Positions 5,002 through 47,429 of a stretch of DNA of 64,000 bases are shown one piece after another. This DNA comes from a virus (lineage: Duplodnaviria; Heunggongvirae; Uroviricota; Caudoviricetes): IMG/VR virus record IMGVR_UViG_3300028887_000082; one strand, written 5' to 3'. A program made the translations under genes and the position numbers. Position 1 is the stretch's first letter; every line of letters begins with the position of its first letter. The notes beneath the pieces are model-generated. The model did not search any database and had not been told where the DNA came from. It was given only the letters and a program-made list of their open reading frames with translations.

Positions 5002-5043
5002 TCCTCCACCAAAAAAGGACAATTATTTGCTGGGATACTGTGA

Positions 5044-7178: not shown

Positions 7179-7220
7179 TACATAAATAATACATAAATAA
7201 TAATAAAAAACTTAATTGAA

Positions 7221-8405: not shown

Positions 8406-8668
8406 AATTTTCAAATAGCGTAAAGGGCCTTGATTTTAGTAGAGGAGATTACATTGAAGCCAAAATAGATTTACGCAATTTAAATAGAGCAAAGCAGAAC
8501 ATCATCTCTATTGGAGAAGATATAGCCAACTGGACCCCAAGTGGTAGTGGAGAAAAATATAATCTTCATATTTATTATCCCAATGATGTTAACGATTTAC
8601 GAATAAGATTTTCTGCATTAAGCAGTAATAGAATTAAGATTGGTAATACCACTTATAATCGTAGAACA

Positions 8669-8980: not shown

Positions 8981-8981
8981 A

Positions 8982-9008
8982 AGAGAGGATAAAACATCCT
9001 CTCTTTTG
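8982..9008 (+). terminator. rho-independent terminator (AGAGAGGAT-AAAAC-ATCCTCTCT-TTTG)
   Basis: Perfect 9-bp stem with T-run directly after the stop at 8980. Confidence 0.7.
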
Positions 9009-9031
9009 TACATAAATATTTTATAAAAACT

Positions 9032-9268
9032 TTGTTATATTTAATATACAAAATAAGTTATATGAGTATGAATGATTTGAAATACTTTGGTAAGGTGGTT
9101 GCCTTGTTTCTTGCAGGATTCATTGCCATCATCACAGCATCAGGTGTTTGGAATGGTGTAGCAGAAGGATGTGTTGATTCCTTCTATGGTTGGGTTGCTG
9201 GTATCAACTTCATCATCCAGGGATTTGGTATCTATTCACTTTATAAGAAATTATTCCCAAAAGAATAA
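9032..9268 (+). CDS. small membrane protein (78 aa)
   Basis: Two predicted TM helices (VVALFLAGFIAIITASGVW; AGINFIIQGFGIYSLY). Confidence 0.45.
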   Translation: MLYLIYKISYMSMNDLKYFGKVVALFLAGFIAIITASGVWNGVAEGCVDSFYGWVAGINFIIQGFGIYSLYKKLFPKE

Positions 9269-9465
9269 TACAATATGCTCTCTGGTGAGTTTATGGGTGT
9301 CTTGATTAACTTCATATATGACCCATAAATAAAAGTGGTATAAGTGCAGTATATTCCAGGAGTACATACTGCAACGGTTCATAGTTCAGCCGGGAAACGT
9401 ACGAAACTATGCGTGGGATCCATAACAGACGGAGAAGCATACGGTCACTTGAAAGTCTGTTTTTC

Positions 9466-9553
9466 GGAGGGTTGCCTGAGTGGACGAAAGGGGCTGCCTG
9501 CTAAGCAGTTGAACCCTTTATGGGTTCCAGAGGTTCGAATCCTCTACCCTCCG
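9466..9553 (+). tRNA. tRNA-Ser (anticodon GCT), type II
   Basis: Acceptor GGAGGGT/ACCCTCC perfect; Ser-type D-arm CCTGAGTGGACGAAAGG; anticodon stem GCTGC/GCAGT with loop CTGCTAA; long variable arm; T-arm AGAGG-TTCGAAT-CCTCT; ORF 9344..9649 over it is spurious. Confidence 0.85.
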
Positions 9554-9671
9554 CACATAAATACTATGAATATACAATGTTTTTGGTCCAGAGGATTCCG
9601 GAACCTTTTGAGTGTTAATAAAAGACACGAATGGATTAGAGACAGTTAAATACAAAATAATTTAATAAAGT

Positions 9672-12142: not shown

Positions 12143-13075
12143 TTAATCACCCCAGTATGTACCTGGTCTTGAACAATTAATTTCAACTTCATATTTATAT
12201 CCTTTTGAGAAGTTGTCATCATTGACATATCTCATAACAGTCTTGACATCATAAGGACTCATTGAGATGAACTCATCATATTTGACATAAGGTGCATCCA
12301 TATAATCATCAGATTTCAGTGCATCTGCAATTTCCTTTGGAACATCCTGGGCAGCAATCTCCTCATAGTTGTCAGGATTTGCCTCAACATCTGCCTTGAG
12401 TGCCTCAACCCTTGCATCATATGCTTCTTTCTTTGCCTTCTCTGCGGCAGTCCTGGCTTCCTCCTCTTCTTTTTCTATTCTTCTCTTTTCCTCCTCTTCC
12501 CTCTGCTTTTCAAGATATTTGTCATAAAGTTCATCCACTTCCTTTGTAACTTCCTCAAGACCTGATGTCCTGATTTTGATGAACATTTCCAGAAAACCTA
12601 TTGCATCATTGTTACTGCTGTAATATGATTTTGAATCTATTGTTGTGAAATAGAAGTATTTGTTTTCCTCATTCCAAAGAACATAATAGAGGTCACCCTT
12701 GTTTGTGAAGCATGATTTAACTTTCTCAATATTGGGTTCTGACAATACTTCAAGGAGTCTGTCCACTTTACCTTCTGTACCGAATGTATGTGTGTCCAAA
12801 TATGCCTTACTTGGTTTATGAGAAATATAATCTCTACCTCCACATTCATATAATTTATCACATATTTCATCAGGAACAACAGCCTTGATTTCCTTATATG
12901 CAAAATTATTAAAAGTTTTTACTTTGAAAGATATGTTTCCCAGGAACTCATAATCCTTTGAAAGGAAACCATTCTTCATCTGTGAATAACTCAGATTCCT
13001 GATGTTTCCATTTTCAAGTTCCTTTATTGAAATAGATTCCTTAAGAAAGTTGTAACTATTAAAGTTTGGTACCAT
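12143..13075 (-). CDS. hypothetical protein with E/K-rich coiled coil (310 aa); one of two minus-strand genes
   Basis: Long minus-strand ORF ending at the bidirectional terminator; contains ...EEEKRRIEKEEEEARTAAEKAKKEAYDARVEALKAD... Confidence 0.6.
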   Translation of the reverse strand: MVPNFNSYNFLKESISIKELENGNIRNLSYSQMKNGFLSKDYEFLGNISFKVKTFNNFAYKEIKAVVPDEICDKLYECGGRDYISHKPSKAYLDTHTFGTEGKVDRLLEVLSEPNIEKVKSCFTNKGDLYYVLWNEENKYFYFTTIDSKSYYSSNNDAIGFLEMFIKIRTSGLEEVTKEVDELYDKYLEKQREEEEKRRIEKEEEEARTAAEKAKKEAYDARVEALKADVEANPDNYEEIAAQDVPKEIADALKSDDYMDAPYVKYDEFISMSPYDVKTVMRYVNDDNFSKGYKYEVEINCSRPGTYWGD

Positions 13076-31358: not shown

Positions 31359-31964
31359 ATGCTGACAGTAGATGAAATGAAGTCCAATTCTGAACTCTAC
31401 ACATTGAGGGAAAGTCTTGGAAGACACACCCAACCGGTGATGTTGGATTACAGAATAGGTGATGCCCTTGTGAGTGATGACCTCACACACAGGGGAAGAA
31501 AGTATGATATGGATGTTTATCTTGAGAAATACAAGACAAACCTTCAGCGTCCTTATGTATGGACATATCCACAGCAGAATGCTTTCATCCAGTCTGTCCT
31601 TTATGACAAGGTTGTATCTCCATTTGTTGTAATCATGCACTCTTTGAGTAATGATGGTCTTGGTGACAAGATTGTATATGTCATTGATGGCAAGCAGAGG
31701 CTCACTACTGTCCATAAGTTTATGCACAATGAGTTTCCTGTTGAGGTTGGTGGTGAGAAATATTACTACAAGGATTTTGATGATGACTTGAAGACCTATT
31801 TCAACAGAAACCTTGACCGCTTTGTGGCAATTGTGTATTACAGTTACCCTTATGAACCGGTCACTGATGATGAGAAGATCCAGATCTTCAACTTCTACAA
31901 CTTCACAGGTACTCCCCAGGCAGAGGAACACAAGATTAAGTTACAGAACCTTTTGAAGAAATAA
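31359..31964 (+). CDS. hypothetical protein (201 aa)
   Basis: + strand ORF. Confidence 0.5.
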   Translation: MLTVDEMKSNSELYTLRESLGRHTQPVMLDYRIGDALVSDDLTHRGRKYDMDVYLEKYKTNLQRPYVWTYPQQNAFIQSVLYDKVVSPFVVIMHSLSNDGLGDKIVYVIDGKQRLTTVHKFMHNEFPVEVGGEKYYYKDFDDDLKTYFNRNLDRFVAIVYYSYPYEPVTDDEKIQIFNFYNFTGTPQAEEHKIKLQNLLKK

Positions 31965-31966
31965 CT

Positions 31967-32338
31967 ATGTGCCTTTTATCAACATCTATTAAACCCAAGA
32001 AGGCCAAAGAGGATATTGTCTGCTACAAGTTCTTTTTTAAACGTAATGGACGCCTGATATCTCCCTGGACTCATTTTGAATGGAGAACAAATGTGACATA
32101 CACTGCCAGAAAGGCTAAACCAATGTATCCTAATGAGATAAAGGATGGATACTTCCATAGTTTTACAACAAATGAAATAGCAGATGAGATGGCAGATCAT
32201 TACTCTGGTATACGTCATTGTTATGTATATGAGTGTGTAATCCCAAAGGGTACTTACTACTATACTGGTGAACATCGAGGACTTTCTGGATATGCATCCA
32301 AGAAATTGATTATCAAAAAGAATGTAAGTGTATTTTAA
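31967..32338 (+). CDS. hypothetical protein (123 aa)
   Basis: + strand ORF. Confidence 0.45.
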   Translation: MCLLSTSIKPKKAKEDIVCYKFFFKRNGRLISPWTHFEWRTNVTYTARKAKPMYPNEIKDGYFHSFTTNEIADEMADHYSGIRHCYVYECVIPKGTYYYTGEHRGLSGYASKKLIIKKNVSVF

Positions 32339-32350
32339 GTTCCTAACATT

Positions 32351-32593
32351 ATGATGTACATACTTGCAGGAAGAAGTTATCAATTATATGGCATCTTCTC
32401 CACAAAGGAGAAACTCAATGAGGCCATCGCAGTCGTAAGGAAACATGACCCTTACACACATCTCTATTGGCAGGAGGTAGAGGTTGACAACTTTGACACA
32501 ACCATTGCCTCATTCTTTACAATGCATCCGGAAAAACTTATAGAAATAGAAAAAGACACAGATTATGAAATTTCTGATACAGACAGTAAATAA
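32351..32593 (+). CDS. hypothetical small protein (80 aa)
   Basis: + strand ORF. Confidence 0.4.
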   Translation: MMYILAGRSYQLYGIFSTKEKLNEAIAVVRKHDPYTHLYWQEVEVDNFDTTIASFFTMHPEKLIEIEKDTDYEISDTDSK

Positions 32594-33290
32594 ACAGATT
32601 ACATATGACTTCATTTTTGAGTTGACCATATGTAAGGAATACTTTGATTGGATTGGAAGGGATTTCAAACTCAAGAAACATGAAGGTCTGAACTTTGATG
32701 ATATAAAGAACCCGGACCAGTATGTCCCTGTTGGTTCTGTTGAGTTTGTATCAGAGTATTTGAGGAAGTTTTACCCCCAGGCAGAGAAAGCACTCATACC
32801 TATCAATGTTCCAGAACAGTTGTTCCCATTTGCCGGCAGAACCATTGCCAACATAACCAAACCGGAGGATATGAATGGGTTTGATTGTCTTGTGTACAGA
32901 AAGTCTTTGGATACAATAAAGGATCCCAACAATGGATGGTGGGGATTTCCTGAATATGAATGGTGTAAGGGTTACCAGGTTTCCACTCCAATTGATAACA
33001 TTATTTCTGAATGGAGAGTATTTGTATTCAATGATGTAATTGTGGATGCAAAAAACTACAGGGGTGACTTTTTCGTATGTCCGGATGAAGAAACAGTTTC
33101 CAATATGGTGAAAGCATATAAGAATTCACCCAGAGCATATACGCTTGATGTAGCAGTCACAAGTGAAGGTAAAACTGTAGTGATTGAGTGTCACCGGTTC
33201 TTTTCATGTGGTCTGTATGGATTTTGTGAGCATGATAAATATCCTGTAATGCTTTCACAGGAATGGTTTGAAATGAAAAATATGAGATAA
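32565..33290 (+). CDS. ATP-grasp fold enzyme (amidoligase-like)
   Basis: EWRVFVFNDVIVDAKNY and LDVAVTSEGKTVVIECHRF resemble ATP-grasp motifs (ExxRxF; DxxxxxxGxxxVIExN). Confidence 0.45.
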   Translation: MKFLIQTVNKQITYDFIFELTICKEYFDWIGRDFKLKKHEGLNFDDIKNPDQYVPVGSVEFVSEYLRKFYPQAEKALIPINVPEQLFPFAGRTIANITKPEDMNGFDCLVYRKSLDTIKDPNNGWWGFPEYEWCKGYQVSTPIDNIISEWRVFVFNDVIVDAKNYRGDFFVCPDEETVSNMVKAYKNSPRAYTLDVAVTSEGKTVVIECHRFFSCGLYGFCEHDKYPVMLSQEWFEMKNMR

Positions 33291-33292
33291 TT

Positions 33293-33595
33293 ATGAACAC
33301 TAAAAAAAGAAATGTATTCTTTGATTTGTTTTACAAGAAATACAAATCCATTGATAAAATGAACTACATCAAAAATGTTATGGACTCTTGTGAGACAAAA
33401 GTACAATTGGATTCAGCGTATTCATGGGGAATTGAAATCATTTGGAAAACATGTAGTGCAATGAGAGAAATACTTGATAATGAATATGGTAGTATCTTTG
33501 CATTTCCTATTGAAGATAAAATAATGGATATGTGTAAAGAAATATCAGATGAAATTACCAATCATTATAATAACATACTAAAAAGAAAGATATAA
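33293..33595 (+). CDS. hypothetical protein (100 aa)
   Basis: + strand ORF. Confidence 0.4.
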   Translation: MNTKKRNVFFDLFYKKYKSIDKMNYIKNVMDSCETKVQLDSAYSWGIEIIWKTCSAMREILDNEYGSIFAFPIEDKIMDMCKEISDEITNHYNNILKRKI

Positions 33596-33604
33596 AAGAA
33601 TGAT

Positions 33605-33901
33605 ATGATAGGTATTTTTATTTTCCCGGCAAAACCAAACAAGGATTACCTGTTCTACAAAGAACCCAGAAAAGTTCTTGAAATGAGTGATGATGAAATC
33701 ATATCATCAAAAAATTCATCAAGGGGTATTTTCTATAACATACATTATGACAATGAATGGGAAGGACTCAGTGATGCAGAAATTGTTGATAAGTGGAATG
33801 AAAAAGCGATAAACCTCCAAATTCAGATTGGTAACAGAAAATCCGGACTTGGTTATACATCAGTAGATAAGACTAAATTTATTAGAATAATAAGGAAATG
33901 A
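33605..33901 (+). CDS. hypothetical protein (98 aa)
   Basis: + strand ORF. Confidence 0.4.
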   Translation: MIGIFIFPAKPNKDYLFYKEPRKVLEMSDDEIISSKNSSRGIFYNIHYDNEWEGLSDAEIVDKWNEKAINLQIQIGNRKSGLGYTSVDKTKFIRIIRK

Positions 33902-34575
33902 AACACTATGACAGTATTCCCAGACTCCAGGATGATGGAACACTGAAAGGAGAGATGGTCGCCGGGTACAACAAACTTGACGGTCAGAACTTCTGTGTCA
34001 CATATAATTGTAGAAAGAAAACCTGGGGACCTTATGGATCCAGGACTGTCACTGTTGATGAGAACTCTGAACAGTTTGGGGACACGGTTAGATTCTTCAA
34101 CAACTCCGGTTACAAGGAGATACTTGGAAATATCATCAAGGAGTATTCAGGTAAGGGAGATGTGTTCAATGGTGTTGAAGAAGTCACATTCTTCTTTGAG
34201 TGGTATGGGTGGAACTCATTCGCTGGCAAACACAAGGAAGGTGACAAGATGCACCTGGCACTCATTGATGTGTTCCTGAAGAAGAGAGGTTATATGGAAC
34301 CCAAATCATATGAGATGTGTTTCAGAAATTGCGGAATTGAACTTCCTGATCTCATATATTCCGGACCACTCAATGCAGACATTATAGAAAAGGTTCAGAA
34401 CAATGACTGGACAGACCCGGATTGTTGGAATTCCAAAGTACATGAGGGTGTTGTCTTCAAAAGAACAACACTCCTGAAAGGACAGAGGAGACCATCAGTC
34501 AAGGTGAAGACCAAATGGTGGTTGGACACTCTCCACTCACTTTATACAGAAGAGGAATGTAAGAAACTTGAGTGA
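33898..34575 (+). CDS. ATP-dependent RNA ligase-like nucleotidyltransferase (Rnl family)
   Basis: Motif I AGYNKLDGQN (KxDG, lysine adenylylation site); motif IV EGVVFK; motif V KVKTK; ~225 aa. Confidence 0.6.
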   Translation: MKHYDSIPRLQDDGTLKGEMVAGYNKLDGQNFCVTYNCRKKTWGPYGSRTVTVDENSEQFGDTVRFFNNSGYKEILGNIIKEYSGKGDVFNGVEEVTFFFEWYGWNSFAGKHKEGDKMHLALIDVFLKKRGYMEPKSYEMCFRNCGIELPDLIYSGPLNADIIEKVQNNDWTDPDCWNSKVHEGVVFKRTTLLKGQRRPSVKVKTKWWLDTLHSLYTEEECKKLE

Positions 34576-35428
34576 TATGGAAGGATACAGTATAAATCCA
34601 TTAGACTATCTTAACCAGGCACTTAATTATGCACATCGTTGGAAACTTGATGTCAATCTTGAAAATCCGACCACAATACAGGACAAACTGTTCTGGTTGA
34701 ATTTCTATGACCAGGACATCAGAAAGTCCAGATGTGCAGATAAACTGTTAGTCAGGGAGTATGCAAAAGAAAAACTTGGTTTTGACATCAACATACCAAT
34801 ATTAAAGGTGTATGACAGTGTTGATGACATAAACCTGGATGAACTCCCAGATAAGTTTGTCATAAAGTGTAATCATGGAAGTTCAATGAACATTGTTGTC
34901 AAAGACAAGAGTTCATTTGACTTTGAAAAAGCAAAGGACAAACTCAGGAAATGGATGAGTATTGATTATGCACTATATAATCATTATGAGTTCCATTACC
35001 ATGACATACAACACAAGATTCTGATTGAGGAATACAAGGAAGATCTCAAGACCAATGAACTCAGGGATTACAAGTTCAGCTGTTTCAATGGTGTTCCCAA
35101 AGTTATGTGTGCAATCACAAACCTGTTCAAACACAATGAGACAACCAACTATTATGATATGGATTTCAATCCATTGACTGATATGTCCCTGATATATCAT
35201 CCTGCAAACTACAATGTCCAGATTGATAAACCCAAAGGGTTTGAAAAGATGATAGAGTATGCCACAAAACTCTCCCAGGACTTTAAGTATGTCAGGGTAG
35301 ATTTCTTCAGTATCAATGGTGATGTGTATCTGAGTGAGATGACATTCACACCACATGCCATAATCTGGTTGAGATTCAATAACCCCAAATATGACCTTGA
35401 ACTGGGTAATATGCTTAATATAAAGTAA
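34568..35428 (+). CDS. ATP-grasp enzyme (TupA-like)
   Basis: KFVIKCNHGSS...; ILIEEYKED; YVRVDFFSINGDVYLSEMTFTP. Confidence 0.5.
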   Translation: MSDMEGYSINPLDYLNQALNYAHRWKLDVNLENPTTIQDKLFWLNFYDQDIRKSRCADKLLVREYAKEKLGFDINIPILKVYDSVDDINLDELPDKFVIKCNHGSSMNIVVKDKSSFDFEKAKDKLRKWMSIDYALYNHYEFHYHDIQHKILIEEYKEDLKTNELRDYKFSCFNGVPKVMCAITNLFKHNETTNYYDMDFNPLTDMSLIYHPANYNVQIDKPKGFEKMIEYATKLSQDFKYVRVDFFSINGDVYLSEMTFTPHAIIWLRFNNPKYDLELGNMLNIK

Positions 35429-35429
35429 T

Positions 35430-35672
35430 ATGAATACAAGTTTCATTTATAAGGTGATATCTGAATCAGAAAGGTGGCAGGTAAGACGCAAGAGAAAGAT
35501 CGAGAGGATGAAATTTCTGATGAAAGTTCTTGAAGACAGAAACCTTAACCTCCCTGAAAGATTTTATGGTATGCTGGCAAGGTGGGAGTCAGAATATAGA
35601 AGAGAATGTGAGGAATATCAGCAACTACTTAACATAACCAAGAATGAAAAGAAAGAAGAAAGAATACAGTAA
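35430..35672 (+). CDS. hypothetical protein (80 aa)
   Basis: + strand ORF. Confidence 0.4.
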   Translation: MNTSFIYKVISESERWQVRRKRKIERMKFLMKVLEDRNLNLPERFYGMLARWESEYRRECEEYQQLLNITKNEKKEERIQ

Positions 35673-35913
35673 CATCTGTGATATGAATGGGGAACTCATC
35701 CCATATGGTGTCCCTATTGACTTCACATGGTGGGCATACTATGGGACAGAAGTTGAACTCCACCTGGTTGCGAAGATACGAAAGCGAAAATCCGGTGACA
35801 TCTTTGAGTTCATAAAGGATGAACATGGAAGAGATTGTTTCTTCACTCACAGACTGACATCACTCAATTGGGAACCGGCAGATTTGGAAATATTAAATGA
35901 AAATGAGTTATGA
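35644..35913 (+). CDS. hypothetical protein (89 aa)
   Basis: + strand ORF. Confidence 0.4.
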   Translation: MKRKKKEYSNICDMNGELIPYGVPIDFTWWAYYGTEVELHLVAKIRKRKSGDIFEFIKDEHGRDCFFTHRLTSLNWEPADLEILNENEL

Positions 35914-36185
35914 ACAACATCTTTAATTATATCTTTAATTTTGGACCGGTAATTGTCTCCCTCATCCTCCTTATCTGGATGAGATGTTGTTGTGTATTCA
36001 CAGAGAACATCAAGTTCCCGACAAGAGGACATATTGTACTGATTACACTGTTGTCAGCAATCCCCATTATAGGAATTATAACAGTGGCGGGTATGATTGC
36101 ATTCTATATTGGATTCAGAGTGACAGGTGATTTACGTCTTAAAAGTAATAGATTTACTAAATTTTGGTTTGACATAGATGAATGA
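35910..36185 (+). CDS. small membrane protein (91 aa)
   Basis: Two hydrophobic helices. Confidence 0.4.
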   Translation: MNNIFNYIFNFGPVIVSLILLIWMRCCCVFTENIKFPTRGHIVLITLLSAIPIIGIITVAGMIAFYIGFRVTGDLRLKSNRFTKFWFDIDE

Positions 36186-36705
36186 TTTTAAGAAAATAGT
36201 TTTCCTGGATATAGATGGTGTATTGGCATCCATCCAATTCTTGTGTGATCATCCCAAGTCATCAGGAATTGATCCGGAAAAGTGTAAACTCCTCAACACC
36301 CTTTCTGAAATAGGTGCTGAAATTGTCATATCCTCTTCCTGGGGACACGACAATGGCAGAACTGAAAAGACATTGAGACAATGTGGGTTGACCCTTCCAA
36401 TCATAGGTTACACCCAACATTTTTCCCAGGACTGGATATGTAGGGGTAATGAAATTGAGAAGTGGTTGACAGAGATGTATGGTGGTATGGGTACCAAGTT
36501 TGGTTACGATTGCGATACGGGTGAACCATACTACAGGGAACACTTTAGTGATAATGATGTTGATTATGAGTATGTTATCTTTGATGATGACACTGATTTC
36601 CTGCTTGGACAAAAAGACAACTTCATCAAAATAGATGAAAAGACAGGTCTGACAGAAGAGGACATCAACAAAGCAATTAAGATACTTACAAGAAGTGGCG
36701 AATAA
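36178..36705 (+). CDS. HAD-superfamily phosphatase (polynucleotide 3'-phosphatase-like)
   Basis: Motif I VFLDIDGVLAS (DxDGxL); motif II IVISSSW; lies 1.6 kb downstream of the RNA ligase. Confidence 0.55.
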   Translation: MNDFKKIVFLDIDGVLASIQFLCDHPKSSGIDPEKCKLLNTLSEIGAEIVISSSWGHDNGRTEKTLRQCGLTLPIIGYTQHFSQDWICRGNEIEKWLTEMYGGMGTKFGYDCDTGEPYYREHFSDNDVDYEYVIFDDDTDFLLGQKDNFIKIDEKTGLTEEDINKAIKILTRSGE

Positions 36706-36726
36706 ATTTCGCCATTTTTTTTTTGT
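36697..36726 (+). terminator. rho-independent terminator (GGCGAA-ATAAAT-TTCGCC-TTTTTTTTTT)
   Basis: Perfect 6-bp GC stem plus T10, overlapping the gene's stop. Confidence 0.75.
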
Positions 36727-36752
36727 TATTTCAAAAAAATATATTATCTTTG
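36722..36752 (+). promoter_or_regulatory. Bacteroidota-type promoter (TTTG, 19 nt, TATCTTTG)
   Basis: TTTTGTTATTTCAAAAAAATATATTATCTTTGTAATAG upstream of 36775. Confidence 0.55.
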
Positions 36753-36774
36753 TAATAGATATAAACAAACAGAT

Positions 36775-37380
36775 ATGAAACTGATTGAATTAGGTACCCA
36801 GTATCTCACCCGTAAGGATGAGGAAGAGGCTGCCAGACAGGCTGCCCAGAAGATTATGGAAGAGATTGAAACCCTGTGTCCTCACAAGGTTGGTGAGATA
36901 ATCAAGTGGATTGGATCCAAGTGCAAGAAGGTTGGTCCGGTACATGATTCATATTGGACAACCGGTGACAAGGTTGAGAAGAAAGCTATGCTTTCCAAGG
37001 TTCAACCTGACATCTTCAAAACTCCTGATGGTGAGGTCAAGGTCAATTTCATATATACTTTCCGACCCATCACATCCAAGGGCAACCTGAGTCATATACA
37101 TACTTCACCTGAAGAAGAATTTGAATGGACAGGGGAAATGTATGAGAACCCCAACAAGAAGGATTACACATCTGACTTTGAGCAGTTCAAGAATGAACAC
37201 CCGGGTTGGGATAAGTATGGTATCACTGATTCAATGGCATATGACCTGATGGATTGGTATGATATAAAGCACAACATCACACTTGAACTGGATGAAGATG
37301 GTGAGGCAATATGTGCAAGTGATGAGGGACATGAGTTCGCAAGATATGTCTGGACTGAGATTCTCGGTCTTGTATGGTAA
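36775..37380 (+). CDS. hypothetical protein (201 aa)
   Basis: + strand ORF with its own promoter. Confidence 0.5.
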   Translation: MKLIELGTQYLTRKDEEEAARQAAQKIMEEIETLCPHKVGEIIKWIGSKCKKVGPVHDSYWTTGDKVEKKAMLSKVQPDIFKTPDGEVKVNFIYTFRPITSKGNLSHIHTSPEEEFEWTGEMYENPNKKDYTSDFEQFKNEHPGWDKYGITDSMAYDLMDWYDIKHNITLELDEDGEAICASDEGHEFARYVWTEILGLVW

Positions 37381-41599: not shown

Positions 41600-42391
41600 A
41601 TGGCAAAAAAGAAGGAGAATGAAGAGGAGAAGACAATCTCTCCAAGTCAGTACTTTGATTTCTTGAAGGGAGCAAAGAACATCATCACAACCGAGGCACT
41701 CAAGGAGTCATATGATGTGTTCATAAAACTGGCTGAAAAGTACCAAAAGATAGGTCAGGTGGAGTCTCTCAAGAAGCTTTGCTTCCTTGCAGACACACTG
41801 GTGAAGGAGGAGAAACTCATTGAGATGGGAATCAACACATTCATCTATAAGGACACCATTGAGGACTACATTGAGAATGTGGCAGGTAAGACCGTCAAGA
41901 TTGTGGAACTCTCCAGATATATGAGAGAGGTTCCGGATGAACTGGTGGAGACCATTGAAAAGACCAAGAGTCTCTTCAATGAGTTCTATGTAATCTTCAC
42001 AGACTATACCGGTAAGGAAGAGAGAAAGATTGAGAAGGAGAGAAGGGATAAGGATCCCATCCTGTTCGGTGTGTTCAAAGACAACACCAATGTATCTGAC
42101 CGCTTCTACTTCCTGGGTGACTGGGTGGATGAGTATTGTGACCTCACCCTTGACAAGATGGTTGAGCAGTACAAGTCAAAGAAGAATGTCTCACCTGTTG
42201 TAACCACAGAGATACCCAAGGATAGTGATGAACTTGTTTCAATCCTCAAGACATACAAGATTGAGGAGAAGAAGGGTAACAGTTACATAACCCTTACACC
42301 CAATGATCCGCTTCCTGTTGCCAATTACAAGGTAGAGGGTGAAAAGAAACCCGGATTCTTTAAGAAGGTCTTCAGTGTATTTAAGAACTAA
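41600..42391 (+). CDS. hypothetical protein (263 aa)
   Basis: + strand ORF. Confidence 0.55.
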   Translation: MAKKKENEEEKTISPSQYFDFLKGAKNIITTEALKESYDVFIKLAEKYQKIGQVESLKKLCFLADTLVKEEKLIEMGINTFIYKDTIEDYIENVAGKTVKIVELSRYMREVPDELVETIEKTKSLFNEFYVIFTDYTGKEERKIEKERRDKDPILFGVFKDNTNVSDRFYFLGDWVDEYCDLTLDKMVEQYKSKKNVSPVVTTEIPKDSDELVSILKTYKIEEKKGNSYITLTPNDPLPVANYKVEGEKKPGFFKKVFSVFKN

Positions 42392-42393
42392 GT

Positions 42394-42798
42394 ATGCTTC
42401 CGAGAAACATTGATCTCACCGAGAATAGAGACTTTGGTGGTGATGGAGAATTGGATGGACTTGACATATCACTCTGGTGGGATGATGATGAATTGATAAC
42501 TCCTGCCCAGTGGCACAATAGTGTAAGGTTTCAGAGTTTCTTTGGGAAAAGAATCCACAAGAATGAGAAGGATAAAATCTTCACTCATATGGATCTTCCA
42601 TTTCTCACAGGTGATGAAGGTAGATGTACCAAGTGTGGTCGCTTATTAGTCCCCTGGAATAGGTTTCACGGATTCTGTATGGGATGTAAAGATGAAATGG
42701 AAAAGTTCACACCAAAGGACATTCCTTGGCGGAACAATGAACTAAGAATAGTTAGAGCTGGTGACAGAGGTCAGGGAGATTTATTCAATTTAAGATGA
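42394..42798 (+). CDS. hypothetical protein with zinc-ribbon (134 aa); C-terminus ends ...RAGDRGQGDLFNLR
   Basis: CTKCGRLLVPWNRFHGFCMGCKDE; its C-terminal GDRGQGD echoes the N-terminal tag of the downstream array. Confidence 0.5.
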   Translation: MLPRNIDLTENRDFGGDGELDGLDISLWWDDDELITPAQWHNSVRFQSFFGKRIHKNEKDKIFTHMDLPFLTGDEGRCTKCGRLLVPWNRFHGFCMGCKDEMEKFTPKDIPWRNNELRIVRAGDRGQGDLFNLR

Positions 42799-42971
42799 GT
42801 ATCTGGGGTGATATGCTTGACAAAGGTCAGGGAGATATGGAGAGAGGAGAAGACCTTCCACATATCAGAAGTCTTTATCCCTCAGTGTTTGGTAAGAAAA
42901 ATCCCACAAGAAAGGATTTGGAAGACTATAGAGAAATGTGTGAAAACTTAAATAAAATATTTGGACTATGA
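42795..42971 (+). CDS. tandem-array member 1 (58 aa): N-terminus MSIWGDMLDKGQGD...
   Basis: Shares the N-terminal MS(I/V)WGDMLD(R/K)G.G motif with the next four genes. Confidence 0.5.
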   Translation: MSIWGDMLDKGQGDMERGEDLPHIRSLYPSVFGKKNPTRKDLEDYREMCENLNKIFGL

Positions 42972-43237
42972 GTATCTGGGGTGACATGCTTGACCGGGGA
43001 ACCGGGGAGAAAATAAAGAAGGAGGATATCATCCCCTTTCCTAACTTTGATGAACTTTTTTATCCTGATATTACTATTAATCCCAAATCATTTACTGTAG
43101 ATTATTTAGACCAATTAAGAGATTTCTCAAAGAAAACATCAGATATAGAAAGTAAACTATCAGATGTGGAAAAGAAACTCAAGGAACTTGGAGTTACAAT
43201 AAATGATTTTACCAAATCATGTAGATTACCATTATGA
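42968..43237 (+). CDS. tandem-array member 2 (89 aa): MSIWGDMLDRGTGEKIKKEDIIPF...
   Basis: First ~60 nt nearly identical to member 5; C-terminus unrelated. Confidence 0.6.
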   Translation: MSIWGDMLDRGTGEKIKKEDIIPFPNFDELFYPDITINPKSFTVDYLDQLRDFSKKTSDIESKLSDVEKKLKELGVTINDFTKSCRLPL

Positions 43238-43494
43238 GTGTCTGGGGTGACATGCTTGACAGAGGTAGAGGTATAAGAGAAAAGAAAGAAGATGATTACC
43301 TCTCCAAAATGAAAAGTGCGGGTGTATATAAACCTGTATTTGTACCCTGGTGGAAGAATTTTGACTCTACTGATATTGATATTGATGAAGATGCAATAAA
43401 GGAGATGAACAATTTCAGCTGGGATAAAATGTGGAAGAAACAGAATATCAATGATGAATATTCAAGAGACCTTTTATCCAAACTGTACAAATAA
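43234..43494 (+). CDS. tandem-array member 3 (86 aa): MSVWGDMLDRGRGIREKKEDDYL...
   Basis: Conserved N-terminal 20 aa, divergent remainder. Confidence 0.6.
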   Translation: MSVWGDMLDRGRGIREKKEDDYLSKMKSAGVYKPVFVPWWKNFDSTDIDIDEDAIKEMNNFSWDKMWKKQNINDEYSRDLLSKLYK

Positions 43495-43499
43495 ATCTT

Positions 43500-43817
43500 A
43501 TGGGAGTCTGGGGAAAAATACTTGACCAAGGTTGTGGTATAAAGATTAAGAAGGAGAATGAATATTTGGAGAATCTGAAAAGGATGATTAGAGATGTCCT
43601 ATCTTCCCATAAGGTTTGTCCAGATGGTGACCCACCAATCAAAAATTTCTTTATTGAGGTTGAAGAAGATGGAGGAGTACAAAGATATTCCATTACCCTT
43701 GCAGCCTTGGAACACAAAGATGAATATGGACAAATAACAAGAGATTTTAATAGTCTTGATAATTTGGAAAGCATCCTTAAACTACTTAAAAAAGGAAAAA
43801 TAATATATGTATTTTAA
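43500..43817 (+). CDS. tandem-array member 4 (105 aa): MGVWGKILDQGCGIKIKKENEYL...
   Basis: Most divergent copy of the N-terminal motif. Confidence 0.55.
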   Translation: MGVWGKILDQGCGIKIKKENEYLENLKRMIRDVLSSHKVCPDGDPPIKNFFIEVEEDGGVQRYSITLAALEHKDEYGQITRDFNSLDNLESILKLLKKGKIIYVF

Positions 43818-43819
43818 TT

Positions 43820-44233
43820 ATGAGTATCTGGGGTGATATGCTTGACCGGGGAACCGGTGAAAAGATAAAGAAGGAGGATCTCATTGCCGATCCACTGGGG
43901 ACACTTGAAAAAAGTGTTATAGTGTATATAGGACCTGTGGACAGAACAGTGTTTCCCACAATGCCGGCGGAAAAAGGACAACTGTACTATGTAAAGGATG
44001 AGGTAACCATTGAAGGTGTAACCTTTCCAGCAGGTTCAGGTATAGTCTATGATGGAACCAAGTGGGTAAATGTAGGTGGTTACACTGTTGAAAGGGTAGA
44101 TGCCAATATCGATTACCTTAAACCTGATTCTGGTTTGGAATATATCCCTGAGCCGCCGCGAATTACAATAGCAGCATATGACGATGACGGAGTATATGTA
44201 CCAAAGTCAATAGGATGGAAAAATAATTTTTGA
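43820..44233 (+). CDS. tandem-array member 5 (137 aa): MSIWGDMLDRGTGEKIKKEDLIAD...
   Basis: N-terminal motif; unrelated beta-rich C-terminal domain. Confidence 0.6.
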   Translation: MSIWGDMLDRGTGEKIKKEDLIADPLGTLEKSVIVYIGPVDRTVFPTMPAEKGQLYYVKDEVTIEGVTFPAGSGIVYDGTKWVNVGGYTVERVDANIDYLKPDSGLEYIPEPPRITIAAYDDDGVYVPKSIGWKNNF

Positions 44234-44259
44234 TTAATCAAGAAAAATCATTATATTTG
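44229..44259 (+). promoter_or_regulatory. Bacteroidota-type promoter (TTTG, 19 nt, TATATTTG)
   Basis: TTTTGATTAATCAAGAAAAATCATTATATTTGTAAGAG upstream of 44286. Confidence 0.5.
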
Positions 44260-44285: not shown

Positions 44286-45605
44286 ATGAAACTAACATTA
44301 GAGAATATTACAATCAAAGACCACAAGATTTATGACCCGGAAGGAAACTTCAGGGGAGAAATCTTGTATGAGTACATTCGTGGTTCTCATCTGTATTCAA
44401 CCAATGTGGAGACATCAGATGAAGACCAGGGAGGTATCTACATTATGCCTAACAGCACCATATTGGGTCTTGGTCTTGACTATCAGAATGAGATAAAGGA
44501 TAAGAGTAATGACAAGTGCATCTGGGAGTTGGGAAGATTCCTGGAACTTGCCCTGTCTTCAAACCCAACTGTCCTGGAGGCACTCTTTGTTCCTGGTGAT
44601 AAGGTCATCTATGAACATCCTGTCATCAAGGAGATCCGTTCACACCGTGATGAGTTTATCACCAAGAAGTGTTTTGCACCATTTGGAGGTTATGCTTCAA
44701 GTCAGATAAAGAAGGCTCAGGGTCAGAACAAGAAGATCCACTGGGATATTGCCCAGATGGTAAGGAAGACTCCTATGGACTTCTGTTATACCTTGAAGAA
44801 CCAGGGTAGTCAGCCTATGCAGGACTGGTTGGATGAAAGAGGACTTGATCAGAGAAACTGTGGTCTGGTCAATATTCCCAATATGCCTGATATGTTCGGT
44901 GTGTATTATGACTGGGGTCAGCACATCAGACTTGCCGGTATCACCAAGGAGTATTTCACCAATAAGGAGAATTACTACAAGGATAAGTTTATCAAGACTA
45001 TGGACATGTATCTTGGAAATGAATATATCCTCCATGAGGATGGAAACCTTGAGGATGAACTTGAATATATCTGGGATCATCACTCTGAACCTCATGGTGG
45101 TTACTGTGGAATCATCTCACCCAATGAGGATTCCAACACAGTAAGGTTCTCTTCTGTTGTCAAGGGTGAGAAACCCATCTGTTATATGTCTTACAATGCC
45201 AATGCATATATATCACATTGTAAGGAGTATAGGGAGTATGAGGACTGGAAGGAACACAGAAATCCAGCAAGGTATGAATCCAATATGGAGGGAGAGAAGT
45301 CAGGCAATGCAGATATGAAATATGACTGCAAGAATATGATGCACTGCTTCAGGTTGATGGCAATGGCAAAGGAGATTGCAGAAGGAAAGGGTGTGATCCT
45401 GGATCGCGCTGGTATTGACAGGGAGTTTCTCCTGGATGTTAGAAACCGTAAGTATGGTTATTCTGAACTCCAGAAGAAGATGCTTGACCTGAAGGATGAG
45501 ATGGATGCTGCCATTGAGAAATCTACCATCAAGGATGAGATTGATCCCCAAATGGTCAATGACCTCCTCCTGGAAGCAAGAAAACATTTTAATTCAAAAG
45601 ATTAA
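44286..45605 (+). CDS. Pol-beta superfamily nucleotidyltransferase (439 aa)
   Basis: N-terminal hG[GS]x9-13Dh[DE]h motif: IRGSHLYSTNVETSDEDQGGIYI; substrate specificity not determinable from sequence. Confidence 0.5.
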   Translation: MKLTLENITIKDHKIYDPEGNFRGEILYEYIRGSHLYSTNVETSDEDQGGIYIMPNSTILGLGLDYQNEIKDKSNDKCIWELGRFLELALSSNPTVLEALFVPGDKVIYEHPVIKEIRSHRDEFITKKCFAPFGGYASSQIKKAQGQNKKIHWDIAQMVRKTPMDFCYTLKNQGSQPMQDWLDERGLDQRNCGLVNIPNMPDMFGVYYDWGQHIRLAGITKEYFTNKENYYKDKFIKTMDMYLGNEYILHEDGNLEDELEYIWDHHSEPHGGYCGIISPNEDSNTVRFSSVVKGEKPICYMSYNANAYISHCKEYREYEDWKEHRNPARYESNMEGEKSGNADMKYDCKNMMHCFRLMAMAKEIAEGKGVILDRAGIDREFLLDVRNRKYGYSELQKKMLDLKDEMDAAIEKSTIKDEIDPQMVNDLLLEARKHFNSKD

Positions 45606-45622
45606 CTTTAAAAAATAACACT

Positions 45623-45898
45623 ATGTTTGGAATTATTTTATCATTAGTAGCTGCACTTCTATGTGCAATTTCATGTGGTATTTACATTCTTGAAAAGAAA
45701 CCGGTGGGTGCCACATTTTTTGGATTCTTGTCAATTTTAAATCTTGTTTTCTTTTTTCTTAATCTTGTGAACTATAATTCAAATGAAATTGAGAAACATG
45801 AGATTGAAAATGTTATAAAGTATGATGTTGACAGTACCATGACAATATCCGGAAAGGACACTACAAAGACATACACAATTTATTACTACAAATATTAA
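45623..45898 (+). CDS. small membrane protein (91 aa)
   Basis: Two TM helices. Confidence 0.4.
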   Translation: MFGIILSLVAALLCAISCGIYILEKKPVGATFFGFLSILNLVFFFLNLVNYNSNEIEKHEIENVIKYDVDSTMTISGKDTTKTYTIYYYKY

Positions 45899-45902
45899 AA
45901 TT

Positions 45903-46352
45903 ATGAAACCGGAGAATAGGAATACATTGAAGAAAAGTGTGGAAGCTCTCACTACCCTTGGGTTCAAACCTGAAAACATTATGGTAACCGGAAGTATAGC
46001 TCTGGATATTGTTGGAGTACTTCCCCCGAACAGATGGACTCATGACATTGATTTCATCATCAAAATGGATGACAAGTCTTGGCATTGCATGAAACTGCTT
46101 GAAGCAATTGAAAAGGCAGATATGGGTAAGGATAGCAAGTATCCTGATGACAAGAATATGGTCTTCCTGAAGTTAAAGGGTATCAGTACTAACATATGGA
46201 GACACACTCCCAACTTTGACTGGTCAACCATCAAGGATACAGAGACTGGTGTTATGGTGGCAACAGTGTCTCATATTATTCAGGCAAAGAAGGCATATGG
46301 TCGCCAAAAGGACTATGAGGATCTTGCCGCCATTTGCAAATACATTCTTTGA
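45903..46352 (+). CDS. hypothetical protein (149 aa)
   Basis: + strand ORF. Confidence 0.5.
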   Translation: MKPENRNTLKKSVEALTTLGFKPENIMVTGSIALDIVGVLPPNRWTHDIDFIIKMDDKSWHCMKLLEAIEKADMGKDSKYPDDKNMVFLKLKGISTNIWRHTPNFDWSTIKDTETGVMVATVSHIIQAKKAYGRQKDYEDLAAICKYIL

Positions 46353-46354
46353 TA

Positions 46355-46573
46355 ATGATATTCAAGTTCAATGGAGGTAGAGGTGCCATCCTTTGTGACA
46401 AATGTGGAATCATCCTCAAGTCAGGAGATGACATTCCAAAATATGTCTGGGATGCAGTCAGGAAAGGTACTGTAAGTGACCTCCCTGGTATGTGTTGTGA
46501 TGACAACTGTGAAAGAAGTAAGAAAATTCTTGGAGACATCTACACAGGTAACACCAAAGATGTAGGACAATAA
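46355..46573 (+). CDS. small Cys-rich protein (~72 aa; internal ATG of ORF 46334..46573)
   Basis: CDKCG...CCDDNCERSKK pattern. Confidence 0.4.
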   Translation: MIFKFNGGRGAILCDKCGIILKSGDDIPKYVWDAVRKGTVSDLPGMCCDDNCERSKKILGDIYTGNTKDVGQ

Positions 46574-46583
46574 AATTAAGATT

Positions 46584-47429
46584 ATGTATTTCAAAAACCT
46601 AAAAGAAAAGTGCGAATATTACCGTTCGCTTACTGATTATAAACTGATGTCAAACTCTTATGTCCTGGTGATGGTGGATGGTCACTGTTTCAGCAAGATG
46701 ATCAAGAATAAGTTTGACAAACCATTTGATGATGAGTTCATCAATATGATGAATGAGACTGCAAAGTATCTGTGTGAACAGGTACAGGGAGTTAAGTTTG
46801 CATACACACAGTCTGATGAGATTTCACTTCTCATCACAGACTTTGACACACCAGTAACCGATGCATACTTTAGTTTCAGACTCTGTAAGATGCAGTCACT
46901 CATTGCTGCACTGGCAACTGCCAAGTTCAACCAGTTATATGCCATCCATAACATTGGTAAGGAAGTGAGTGGTGGCAGCAACAAGATTGAACTTAAGAAG
47001 ACTATTCCACTCTGTACATTTGACTGTAAGGTATGGACTGTTCCAAATGCAAATGACGCCTATGCCTGGTTCCTCTACAGACAGACTGACTGTATCAAGA
47101 ACTCAAAGGCACAGACAGCCCAGACATATCTTCCACACAAACAGTTGGTGGGTCTGACAGCAGATGATATGATTGCCAAACTCAAGGATGAGCAGAACAT
47201 TGACTGGTATGAGTTTGTCAATGGTAAGAAGTATGGAAGACTCATCAGGAAAGTGGAGACTCCTATGGAGAAAGACCTTTCCAATGGACTACACATTGAA
47301 TACATAAGGAATGTATGGACACCTGTTGAGATAACAGACTTGAGAGAGGATGGGTCACAAGTGAGAGATCTGATTCCTGAACTGTTCAGACCTGGTGTTA
47401 ATATAAAAGAAGAAATCACAGAAGAATGA
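46584..47429 (+). CDS. Thg1-like protein (tRNA-His guanylyltransferase family, 3'-5' nucleotide addition)
   Basis: YVLVMVDGHCFSKMIKNKFDKPFDDEFINMMNETAKYLCEQVQGVKFAYTQSDEISLLI parallels the Thg1 catalytic core (...VVRIDGRGFHKF...KPND...LMN.....FAYGQSDEYSF). Confidence 0.7.
   Translation: MYFKNLKEKCEYYRSLTDYKLMSNSYVLVMVDGHCFSKMIKNKFDKPFDDEFINMMNETAKYLCEQVQGVKFAYTQSDEISLLITDFDTPVTDAYFSFRLCKMQSLIAALATAKFNQLYAIHNIGKEVSGGSNKIELKKTIPLCTFDCKVWTVPNANDAYAWFLYRQTDCIKNSKAQTAQTYLPHKQLVGLTADDMIAKLKDEQNIDWYEFVNGKKYGRLIRKVETPMEKDLSNGLHIEYIRNVWTPVEITDLREDGSQVRDLIPELFRPGVNIKEEITEE

Follow-up and report, generated by a model that had tools for sequence, protein, structure and literature searches.

The locus described here raises the question of why five consecutive phage genes should start with nearly the same twenty residues and then have nothing else in common. 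The genes lie in a 64,000-nucleotide stretch of DNA from the IMG/VR record IMGVR_UViG_3300028887_000082, the whole of which we refer to as the window, and they form an array of five tightly packed plus-strand genes whose products are 58, 89, 86, 105 and 137 aa long. All five N-termini fit the consensus MS(I/V)WGDMLD(R/K)G.G...KKE(D/N), referred to below as the tag, and the remainder of each protein is referred to as its cargo. The array fills a slot whose content differs between relatives, and the features of the locus are as follows.

32565-33290 and 34568-35428: two ATP-grasp genes, 7-10 kb upstream of the array
41600..42391, + strand: conserved 263-aa protein (phrog_10081, labelled 'transposase')
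42394..42798, + strand: 134-aa CxxC...CxxC protein, the left border of the slot and not itself a tag carrier
42795..42971, + strand: tagged gene 1, 58 aa, tag at 42795-42854, starts MSIWGDMLDKGQGDMERGED, basic 38-aa cargo
42968..43237, + strand: tagged gene 2, 89 aa, tag at 42968-43027, starts MSIWGDMLDRGTGEKIKKED
43234..43494, + strand: tagged gene 3, 86 aa, tag at 43234-43293, starts MSVWGDMLDRGRGIREKKED
43500..43817, + strand: tagged gene 4, 105 aa, tag at 43500-43559, starts MGVWGKILDQGCGIKIKKEN
43820..44233, + strand: tagged gene 5, 137 aa, tag at 43820-43879, starts MSIWGDMLDRGTGEKIKKED, as gene 2
44286..45605, + strand: RlaP-family nucleotidyltransferase, the right border of the slot

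The start codons of genes 1 to 3 each overlap the stop codon of the preceding gene (ATGA), genes 4 and 5 follow after gaps of 5 and 2 nt, and none of the five has an alternative start further upstream. A 27-nt start pattern matches four times where 0.00 matches are expected (100 shuffles), and the gene 4 tag, MGVWGKILDQGCGIKIKKEN, is the most divergent. Pairwise nucleotide identity among the genes is 0.55-0.93 in the first 60 nt, against 0.08-0.38 in the next 60 nt and 0.13-0.50 in the 30 nt upstream, so that similarity ends sharply at nucleotide 60; blastp among the five cargo regions (after residue 20) finds no similarity (E > 0.07). These comparisons bear out the first-pass annotation, which had described five tandem genes with a near-identical 20-aa start and unrelated C-termini, and its phrase 'conserved N-terminal module on variable cargo' frames them correctly. 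Scans for sigma-70 promoters and terminators across the array gave chance-level results, and a TAnnTTTG motif is present at 44252-44259, ahead of the nucleotidyltransferase gene. Megablast of positions 40-48 kb of the window gave no match among cultured phages, and the exact tag DNA pattern has none in IMG/VR.

The 134-aa gene at the left border is kept together with the 263-aa gene, which served as the anchor for fetching related loci, whether or not the slot between the borders holds tagged genes. The protein ends with RAGDRGQGDLFNLR, and this had been read as an echo of the tag. The resemblance stands, but homologues at L003, L011 and L014, all fetched loci without tagged genes in the slot, have this C-terminus conserved; the echo is therefore a property of the 134-aa protein family, and we reject its interpretation as a recombination scar.

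The cargo of the five window genes is 38-117 aa long, with a Cys/Ser/Thr fraction of only 0.09-0.17. Calculated pI values are, in gene order, 9.0, 4.9, 5.2, 5.3 and 4.4, and four of the five are acidic (4.4-5.3). Orthologues were found for gene 1 (P0012, which bears the same tag), gene 2 (P0003-P0005, the gene 2 cargo looking helical by eye, without a prediction run), gene 3 (P0110) and gene 4 (P0111, P0117, P0166 and P0137). The beta-rich cargo of gene 5 also occurs in other lineages, there under their own tag variant, as seen in an alignment that took in L013, L004, P0107, P0148 and P0161. Two simple roles for such proteins were considered and set aside. The tag is charged and lacks any hydrophobic stretch, the whole proteins have GRAVY values of -0.25 to -1.0, and neither the hydrophobic N-terminal h-region of a Sec, Tat or lipoprotein signal nor the C-terminal sorting domain of T9SS is present. 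Polymorphic toxins or effectors with an N-terminal trafficking domain were rejected on the strength of zero toxin family matches for the five proteins in Pfam and PHROGs, and the array lacks toxin-immunity pairs because its consecutive genes are all tagged.

The near identity of genes 2 and 5 (93% across 60 nt) had been attributed to a recent conversion event limited to the tag. That explanation is unsupported, because the four codons that differ are all synonymous (4/4) and the other copies also differ largely at synonymous sites; among the tags of locus L088 the mean pair has 6.3 synonymous and 1.7 non-synonymous codon differences. Selection therefore acts on the peptide, and it is peptide-level selection that keeps the tag.

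Profile searching had divided results. The five complete proteins have no significant match in Pfam or PHROGs, while a profile of the tag recovered 362 tag-bearing proteins at E <= 1e-3; these are cluster representatives, and the number is a lower bound on family size. A large, undescribed family is represented in the window by five genes of its free-standing form, which starts with Met; the peptide that defines the family spans about 20 residues and reads S-(I/V)-W-x-D-(I/M)-x-x-R-(S/G)-x-G-x-x-x-(R/K)-K-E-D. The main fact, which the first-pass annotation did not see, is that the tag extends beyond N-termini and recurs inside large proteins from the same phage lineage, where its repeated copies mark the borders between modules. 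We counted 453 copies across 185 proteins, of which 59 are exactly N-terminal, 104 follow a leader of 5-12 aa (MIPDFKTYIxE or MKKLSKIxE) and 288 are located internally. Many members are 300-1159 aa long and carry 2-7 internal copies spaced about 153 aa apart, 153 aa also being the median module length. Inside the proteins the pattern is (V/I/L)-x-E-S-(I/V)-W..., Glu taking the place of the Met of the free-standing genes: the Met position is Glu in 389 of 392 non-N-terminal copies, and the residue two before it is V, L, I, T or M in 380 of the 392. The tag itself ends in (R/K)-K-E-D, with an invariant Glu19 and a basic residue at P3.

The cargo of the family is as varied as that of the window. 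At least nine unrelated cargo types follow an exactly N-terminal tag, one type being the WYL_2 domain, which is also found untagged in an adjacent gene. GNAT and nucleotidyltransferase domains are among the cargo, some multi-tag proteins open with a GNAT domain, and among the large members DUF285/BspA-like leucine-rich repeat (LRR) cargo is found in 8/97 and lectin-like Lcl_C cargo in 4/97. Comparison of the long relatives with PHROGs matched cargo domains only and never the tag. Within some long proteins the modules are visibly homologous to one another, and modules appear to have been shuffled among proteins of different phages. AlphaFold was informative for one relative and not for the window: the model of gene 5 is too poor to use (pLDDT 47), while a one-module member has a confidently predicted domain (residues 31-172, pLDDT > 90) preceded by a leader and tag at about 50. 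In this model the tag is predicted to sit outside the roughly 140-aa cargo domain as a low-confidence extension.

The tag variant follows the genome and not the cargo. Tag identity is 0.76 within and 0.54 between genomes (103 copies in nine genome groups), a gap reached in 0 of 1000 permutations, and within a genome the M-type and E-type tags agree with each other. At least six lineages have distinct variants, among them LDRGTG, HKRSNG, RKRGNG, QDRSSG and MRRGSG, whereas the contigs of L001, L010 and L011 belong to close relatives in which no tag is detectable. Related phages of 345 and 411 kb carry 20 and 30 copies. None was found in 185,579 cellular genomes, and in IMG/VR the tag is on only six contigs of 33-412 kb, five of them larger than 150 kb; sample names suggest a rumen origin for this clade of uncultured giant phages. 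The family is absent from Pfam, PHROGs and the PDB (sequence searches), from cultured phages and from the literature searched, and tblastn of the tagged one-module protein P0186 gave no match among cultured phages.

Genomic context provides mixed clues to function. At L087 and L089 tag genes are interleaved with genes for a T4-type large terminase, a gp13-like neck protein and a gp5-like baseplate hub; a tagged protein that is LRR-like by eye only, and has no family match, lies between the gp13-like neck and fibre-like genes, and further tag genes directly follow the gp5-like hub gene. Many other tag genes, the window array included, lie amid RNA-repair, replication or RimK/metallophosphatase genes and not structural ones. 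The annotated ORFs of the window and L087 and the ORF listing of L092 show no gene for a prohead protease, capsid or portal, and one walking step along the 411-kb contig revealed more tag genes and neither head genes nor a protease. A receptor for the tag did not emerge either. The T4-type terminase, gp13-like and gp5-like genes make a gp21-type protease (PF03420) plausible in these phages.

We suggest, with a probability of roughly 0.4, that the tag is a portable docking peptide recognized by one co-evolving phage-encoded reader, that it probably serves virion loading, and that the long forms are cut after Glu. A linear address tag lying outside the cargo fold would be bound by a single phage-encoded receptor that co-evolves with it, and the most likely destination of tagged cargo would be the assembling virion. 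If so, the small, unrelated proteins of the slot may travel in the particle and be delivered along with the DNA. The large multi-tag proteins would be polyproteins cleaved after the Glu of (V/I/L)-x-E|S, and each module so released would have the same S-(I/V)-W... N-terminus as a free-standing protein that has lost its initiator Met. The conserved E-S and the hydrophobic position before it could alternatively be structural and not a cleavage site.

The closest precedent is the capsid-targeting sequence (CTS) of phage T4, the best of the three analogies offered by the first-pass annotation, and a circumstantial one. As in IPI, IPII and IPIII of T4, a short conserved N-terminal peptide is carried by small unrelated proteins, and as for the non-essential internal proteins of the T-even phages, whose loci are variable (PMC3012670, PMC9026906), the genes occupy a variable locus that lies apart from the head genes (PMC9026906, PMC3012670, PMC8442874). 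Terminase, neck and hub genes of T4 type are present in the relatives. Cleavage by the T4 prohead protease gp21 follows an (L/I)-x-E rule (PMC9026906), which the hydrophobic-x-Glu before each module of the long forms matches; in the tag family this motif stands ahead of the tag and is confined to copies that are internal or carry a leader. The T4 CTS, MKTYQEFIAE, is about 10 aa long (PMC8442874), to be compared with 5-12 aa for the long-form leaders, both ending in I-x-E, and the leader MIPDFKTYIxE has KTY as well as I-x-E in common with it, a likeness too short to score. In detail the two differ. The tag is 20 aa long with no sequence similarity to MKTYQEFIAE, its own end lacks (L/I)-x-E, Glu19 following (R/K)-K instead, and the tag would therefore stay on the mature protein. 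The T4 internal proteins are highly basic (PMC8442874), unlike the mostly acidic window cargo, and a tag present 2-7 times within long proteins and 20-30 times per genome has no counterpart in T4.

Among giant phages, SPN3US has paralogous families of up to 20 members, and giant-phage prohead proteases cut after Glu (PMC5694885, PMC9026906). SPN3US, phiKZ and 201phi2-1, noted for head paralogues and long propeptides, resemble the phages described here in having large paralogous families and identical N-termini on diverged paralogues (PMC5694885, PMC9026906), but their head families show whole-protein homology and A/S/G-x-E cleavage motifs. In PHROGs, neither the tag nor the modules of the tagged proteins match a family, and no tie to these head paralogues was detected. 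Encapsulin cargo-loading peptides offer a further parallel, being short linear peptides, disordered outside the cargo fold, that direct diverse cargo into an HK97-fold shell. They are usually C-terminal, belong to bacterial nanocompartments and occur once per cargo; the tag is likewise short, linear and outside the cargo fold, with no encapsulin-like context near tag genes.

A bolder form of the docking proposal is possible, and we hold it tentatively, the odds being against it: the tag would be a genome-wide 'zip-code' written 20-30 or more times per genome and read by a single receptor, with a Glu-specific protease cutting the polyproteins and the cargo delivered to the next host.

The DUF285/BspA-like LRR and Lcl_C cargo of the large members looks more like surface adhesins, which counts against internal loading and favours a tag that tethers adhesin-like or decoration modules, as uncut multivalent 'beads on a string', to the exterior of the capsid, neck or baseplate. 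The neck, fibre-like and hub genes beside the tag genes of L087 and L089 fit this explanation. Receptor-binding proteins also combine a constant N-terminal anchor with a variable C-terminus; in the known cases the anchor is a folded domain of at least about 100 aa, sits on large trimeric fibres and is not repeated within the chain. The tag shares that organization, some adhesin-like cargo and some baseplate or neck neighbours, and differs in being a 20-aa low-confidence peptide, in the window on proteins of 58-137 aa encoded in a non-structural region. We consider an external anchor unlikely, since the window cargo is tiny, unrelated and not adhesin-like, the GNAT, nucleotidyltransferase and WYL_2 cargo points to intracellular action, and the near-invariant (V/I/L)-x-E ahead of internal copies would be superfluous for anchoring.

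Equally unlikely in our estimation is that the peptide, rich in S, K, E and D, is recognized or modified by a phage enzyme acting on many folded substrates, a leader-peptide logic applied to proteins. The candidates are a RimK-like ATP-grasp ligase, a PF05618 protease-GNAT fusion and a papain-like peptidase. In at least four lineages (the 411-, 233- and 155/248-kb contigs and L088) a RimK-like ATP-grasp gene (PF08443) is found no more than about 1 kb from tag genes, and in L131 it is directly adjacent to them; a PF05618 plus GNAT gene follows the ATP-grasp gene in L120 and in the tag-less L116, a GNAT domain being also what opens some multi-tag proteins; and a papain-like C1 peptidase is conserved near the tag genes of L087 and L089. 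The same ATP-grasp is nevertheless found at L112, L113, L116-L118 and L120 with no recognizable tag within 3 kb, and we reject it as a specific partner of the tag. No such enzyme adjoins the window array, and sequence by itself implies no chemistry.

There is a slim chance that the tag has no virion role and docks small effectors on an intracellular machine of host or phage, such as RNA polymerase, the ribosome or, as a degron, a protease. Descent of the whole family from one duplicated gene, of which only the N-terminus is still recognizable and which has no addressing function, is improbable. The tandem layout and the mutually homologous modules of some large members would agree with it, but cargo lengths and predicted secondary structures differ, WYL_2 occurs both tagged and untagged, the tag of the modelled relative lies outside its folded domain, and the tag tracks the genome rather than the cargo.

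The proposal that the tags are leaders of graspetide-type RiPP precursors, made in the first-pass annotation from the conserved leader, the variable remainder and the two ATP-grasp genes upstream, is largely refuted. Multi-core RiPP precursors (prochlorosins, cyanobactin PatE and multi-repeat graspetides) do repeat a conserved recognition sequence before each variable unit, as the tag is repeated, and some members of the tag family have ATP-grasp and GNAT genes nearby. The window enzymes, however, are of the R2K clade and TupA-like, and flank an RNA ligase; some 0.8 kb further downstream lies a HAD_SAK_2 gene, and the group reads as an RNA-repair module and not as dedicated maturases. In place of short cores the tagged units are long, unrelated and Cys/Ser/Thr-poor, with folded domains of about 100-150 aa (about 140 aa in the modelled relative); no RiPP-cluster transporter or peptidase accompanies them, and the tag genes of L081-L084, L087 and L089 are in loci without an ATP-grasp. 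A DNA-level element, in which the shared 60 nt mark the edge of a recombination or gene-conversion cassette or serve translation initiation, the peptide being incidental, would account for the sharp boundary, the ATGA overlaps and the apparent shuffling of modules, and is likewise largely refuted because of the synonymous and non-synonymous counts, the same peptide also being conserved inside long ORFs where no initiation takes place.

As a loading signal, the tag would show how giant phages carry and rapidly exchange many accessory proteins, and foreign proteins could be packaged by means of a tag that is both short and transferable. Polyproteins holding as many as seven tagged modules per chain would be unusual among the strategies of tailed phages. 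Should the genome-wide version be correct, a large and fast-changing cargo repertoire of inhibitors, enzymes and binding modules would be loaded for delivery, and this would be the first polyprotein-based cargo loading in a tailed phage, with a packaging tag ready-made for engineering. Whatever its function, the tag is a clean marker of this phage clade and of an undescribed protein family, and its genome-specific variants are a direct handle, computational as well as experimental, for finding the receptor by co-variation.

Five consecutive open reading frames in the window (genes 1 to 5) share an N-terminal tag with the consensus MS(I/V)WGDMLD(R/K)G.G...KKE(D/N), the tag of gene 4 (MGVWGKILDQGCGIKIKKEN) being the most divergent.

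Features of the window
13-9554: 12 tRNA genes (Tyr, Leu x3, Ile x2, Glu x2, Pro, Val, Ala, Ser), at the window start
12143-13075, minus strand: the sole sizeable minus-strand gene, 310 aa, weakly matching a PHROG family of major head proteins (E 9e-5)
31359-37000: RNA-repair style set of GmrSD_N, R2K-clade ATP-grasp, RNA ligase, TupA-like ATP-grasp and HAD_SAK_2
42795-44233, plus strand: tagged array, five consecutive ORFs of 58, 89, 86, 105 and 137 aa
44252-44259: TAnnTTTG motif, within the 52 nt that separate gene 5 from the RlaP gene
44286-47429: RNA-repair style set continued, RlaP nucleotidyltransferase and then Thg1-like tRNA-His guanylyltransferase

The start codons of genes 1-3 share ATGA with the preceding stop, and gaps of 5 and 2 nt precede genes 4 and 5. 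Four matches to a 27-nt start pattern compare with 0.00 expected in shuffled sequence. Pairwise nucleotide identity of the copies is 0.55-0.93 in the first 60 nt and falls to background over the next 60 nt (0.08-0.38), upstream identity is low (0.13-0.50), and blastp finds no mutual similarity among the five proteins beyond residue 20 (E > 0.07). The near-identical 20-aa N-terminus on unrelated C-termini described in the first-pass annotation is thus borne out. The same annotation proposed recent gene conversion confined to the tags of genes 2 and 5, which are 93% identical over 60 nt; however, all four differing codons are synonymous and none is non-synonymous, pointing instead to conservation of the peptide. 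Elsewhere the synonymous and non-synonymous differences per pair of tags are 6.3 and 1.7 (L088), 4.3 and 2.9 (L089) and 5.5 and 4.7 (L087; L-numbers denote related loci that we fetched). Differences within a genome are therefore mostly synonymous, and it is the peptide rather than the DNA that is conserved.

The array occupies a slot between a 134-aa gene and the RlaP gene that is variable, with unrelated genes there in most close relatives. All sizeable window genes except one are on the plus strand, and other annotations include a Dda-like helicase, a DNA methyltransferase and a sigma-factor-like protein. The TAnnTTTG motif, which we take to be a Bacteroidota-type -7 element, is absent between the tagged genes, suggesting that the array shares a transcript with the genes upstream. 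Window positions 40-48 kb have no DNA-level (megablast) similarity to any cultured phage. The 263-aa gene two positions upstream of the array (phrog_10081) has 80 related IMG/VR loci, many on 340-412 kb contigs, from which we infer that the window phage is an uncultured jumbo phage; the sample labels STEW19 and SHIW14 of related ENA contigs suggest a rumen origin. The slot of L013, on a 411-kb contig, contains three tandem genes with the N-terminus MSIW(A/R)D(M/I)H(R/K)RSNG, and there are four tagged genes in L086, one in L004 (345-kb contig) and one, at the contig end, in L085. In L085 and L086 the slot is flanked by the same RNA-repair style set as in the window.

The product of the 134-aa gene ends in RAGDRGQGDLFNLR, in which an echo of the tag had been seen. 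The sequence is present as reported, but it is kept in homologues from L003, L011 and L014, relatives in whose fetched loci the slot has no tagged genes; it is thus a trait of the 134-aa family and not a leftover of the tag. Comparison of window 42757-42798 with L013, L086 and L085 shows GDRGQGDLF.LR where tags have LDRG.G and PRSAMDIFTLR where they have HRRSNG, a loose parallel in two lineages only, the DRGQG form also occurring where fetched loci show no tagged slot genes.

Word-indexed searching with an alignment of the tags recovered 21 more small proteins (52-76 aa) with an exactly N-terminal tag and several different C-termini. In the L081-L084 lineage the tagged genes are spread across 8 kb, and one has a WYL_2 domain that its neighbour carries without the tag. 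When 1.84 billion representatives were searched exhaustively with a profile, 362 proteins reached E <= 1e-3; unexpectedly, the top matches are 300-1159 aa long and contain 2-7 motif copies. These long ORFs are genuine; L087, on the same 411-kb contig as L013 (GC 38%, standard code), has adjacent genes of 458, 172 and 337 aa with three, one and two copies. Among 453 tag copies in 185 proteins, 59 start the protein itself, with Met at motif position 1, 104 follow a 5-12-aa leader, mostly MIPDFKTYIxE or MKKLSKIxE, and 288 are internal; the median module length in these proteins is 153 aa. Glu replaces Met in 389 of 392 non-N-terminal copies, and V/L/I/T/M lies two positions before it in 380, giving the full motif (V/I/L)-x-E-S-(I/V)-W-x-D-(I/M)-x-x-R-(S/G)-x-G-x-x-x-(R/K)-K-E-D. 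Recognised cargo of the long forms comprises DUF285/BspA-like LRR (8/97), Lcl_C (4/97), GNAT and nucleotidyltransferase, and the majority of modules have no family assigned. The window cargo regions are all unlike these modules, and every one has tagged orthologues of its own.

Several divergent or partial tags fail the strict motif: MKKLSKITEGILGDIAKRDLSGEKKRED at L115 1935-2324, with Trp changed to Leu; EGILGDIAKRDLSGEKKRED, also from L115; the start MGVLLNLTQEYFGKKPRTED of a DUF285 protein (L116 1679-2971); and the start MNEIRKEDN (L113 2110-2727). Given these forms, the family is probably wider than the profile recovers.

Genome-specific tag variants
Window: WGDMLDRGTG
155- and 248-kb IMG/VR contigs: WG(D/G)(I/M)LDRG(T/S)G
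411-kb contig: W(A/S)D(I/M)H(K/R)RSNG, 30 distinct copies
345-kb contig: W(N/G)DIR(K/R)RGNG, 20 distinct copies
L089: WSDIQDRSSG
233-kb contig: WGDMMRRGSG

Mean tag identity is 0.76 within and 0.54 between genomes (103 copies, nine genome groups), a gap reached in 0 of 1000 label permutations. Free-standing (Met-type) tags match the internal or leader-preceded (Glu-type) tags of their own genome at 0.69-0.72 and those of other genomes at 0.52-0.58. The gene 5 cargo recurs in L013, L004 and elsewhere, always bearing the local variant; the tag therefore tracks the genome and not the cargo.

The AlphaFold model of P0186, a one-module protein from the database searches (25-sequence alignment, mean pLDDT 85.8), has a confident alpha/beta domain at residues 31-172 (block means 86-97). 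Residues 1-30, the leader and tag, have pLDDT of ~50 and include a helix, which we take to be unpacked against the domain. For window gene 5, model quality was too low for use.

The context of the long forms is mixed. In L087, L089 and L090 tag genes are interspersed with a T4-type large terminase (PF03237), a gp13-like neck protein (PF26809 / phrog_211) and a gp5-like baseplate hub (phrog_430), and elsewhere they adjoin DNA polymerase B, a SAM-synthetase-like gene, a metallophosphatase, DUF7487 and a RimK-like ATP-grasp (PF08443). The gene for this ATP-grasp (L131 159-1928, L116 3001-5958, L103 1150-2913) is no more than about 1 kb away from multi-tag proteins in several lineages and directly adjacent to them in L131, but it is also present without any recognisable tag nearby. 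Its downstream neighbour in L116 and L120 is a fusion gene that combines a PF05618 'Zn_protease' (RimB-like) domain and a GNAT domain. A conserved element EC(D/E)GVPGGATPxNVGGMG...PGSGD(I/L)P...Y.QV.PF, then a lysine run and FRKEDE.CVH (L116 1362-1673, L115 2290-2622, P0033 C-terminus), forms the final part of a multi-tag protein or its own ~105-aa ORF upstream of the ATP-grasp, and has no Pfam match. A conserved 210-aa gene (MIKIGIDFSLISPAICVYKDGEYSF...) lies within tagged arrays of four lineages (L088 11025-11657, L104 2564-3196, L125 6461-7093, L129 6529-7161); it has no Pfam hit and by eye looks RuvC/RNase-H-like. The L089 terminase (5571-9225) is apparently interrupted: an inserted gene of 390 aa separates the 166-aa N-terminal part from the remaining 657 aa, in which there is a faint intein-splicing hit. 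The terminase of L087 is a single 630-aa gene. A papain-like (Peptidase_C1) gene follows a small lipoprotein-like ORF in the terminase/hub region, about 9 kb from the nearest tag genes in L087 (269-1218) and 2-5 kb in L089 (16099-17057). Papain-type enzymes prefer a hydrophobic P2, making its product a possible alternative processing enzyme.

A degenerate DNA pattern that recovers the known copies matches none of 185,579 cellular species genomes; its only IMG/VR matches are six phage contigs of 33-412 kb, five of which exceed 150 kb. The large related contigs of L001, L010 and L011 have neither a pattern match nor tagged slot genes, although divergent tags such as that of L115 could escape the pattern, and a negative contig does not prove absence.

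These data show that the tag is a portable linear peptide, selected as a peptide, lying outside the cargo fold and covarying across all copies of a genome, which calls for a single, putative phage-encoded reader. We tentatively favour, at a probability of about 0.4, a role in loading cargo into the virion, combined with processing of polyproteins. The long forms would be cut after the Glu of the hydrophobic-x-Glu preceding each tag, and the modules would start S-(I/V)-W, as do free-standing proteins once Met is removed (Met-aminopeptidase removes the initiator Met before Ser or Gly); the tagged cargo would be loaded into the virion. The closest known logic is that of the T4 capsid-targeting sequence (CTS). 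T4 internal proteins are diverse and non-essential, and common to all is only the ~10-aa N-terminal CTS MKTYQEFIAE, which directs them into the prohead core and which gp21 cleaves off after L/I-x-E; in T4-related phages their place is taken by other proteins with a CTS (PMC3012670, PMC9026906, PMC8442874). The tag is similar in that hydrophobic-x-Glu directly precedes each internal copy and ends both leader types, but differs in lacking a cleavage site at its own end. This logic, the hydrophobic-x-Glu and the matching S-(I/V)-W N-termini together favour virion cargo loading. The objections are real: the cargo is mostly acidic and in part adhesin-like in look, many tag genes lie in non-structural neighbourhoods, and neither protease nor receptor was found in the DNA examined (a prohead protease was sought in the window, the annotated ORFs of L087 and the ORF listing of L092).

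That the tag is an external virion anchor is unlikely, as is a recognition site for a modifying or processing enzyme, and we rather doubt an intracellular hub-binding peptide. Ordinary diverged paralogues are improbable, and a RiPP leader very much so. The mostly synonymous tag differences leave next to no room for a DNA-level element.

Nothing in Pfam, PHROGs, PDB or cultured phages matches the motif or the modules, and the searchable literature does not contain the tag strings. The principle of a shared targeting peptide on variable cargo is already known; the peptide itself, its repetition within long proteins, the copy number per genome and the genome-specific variants are new.
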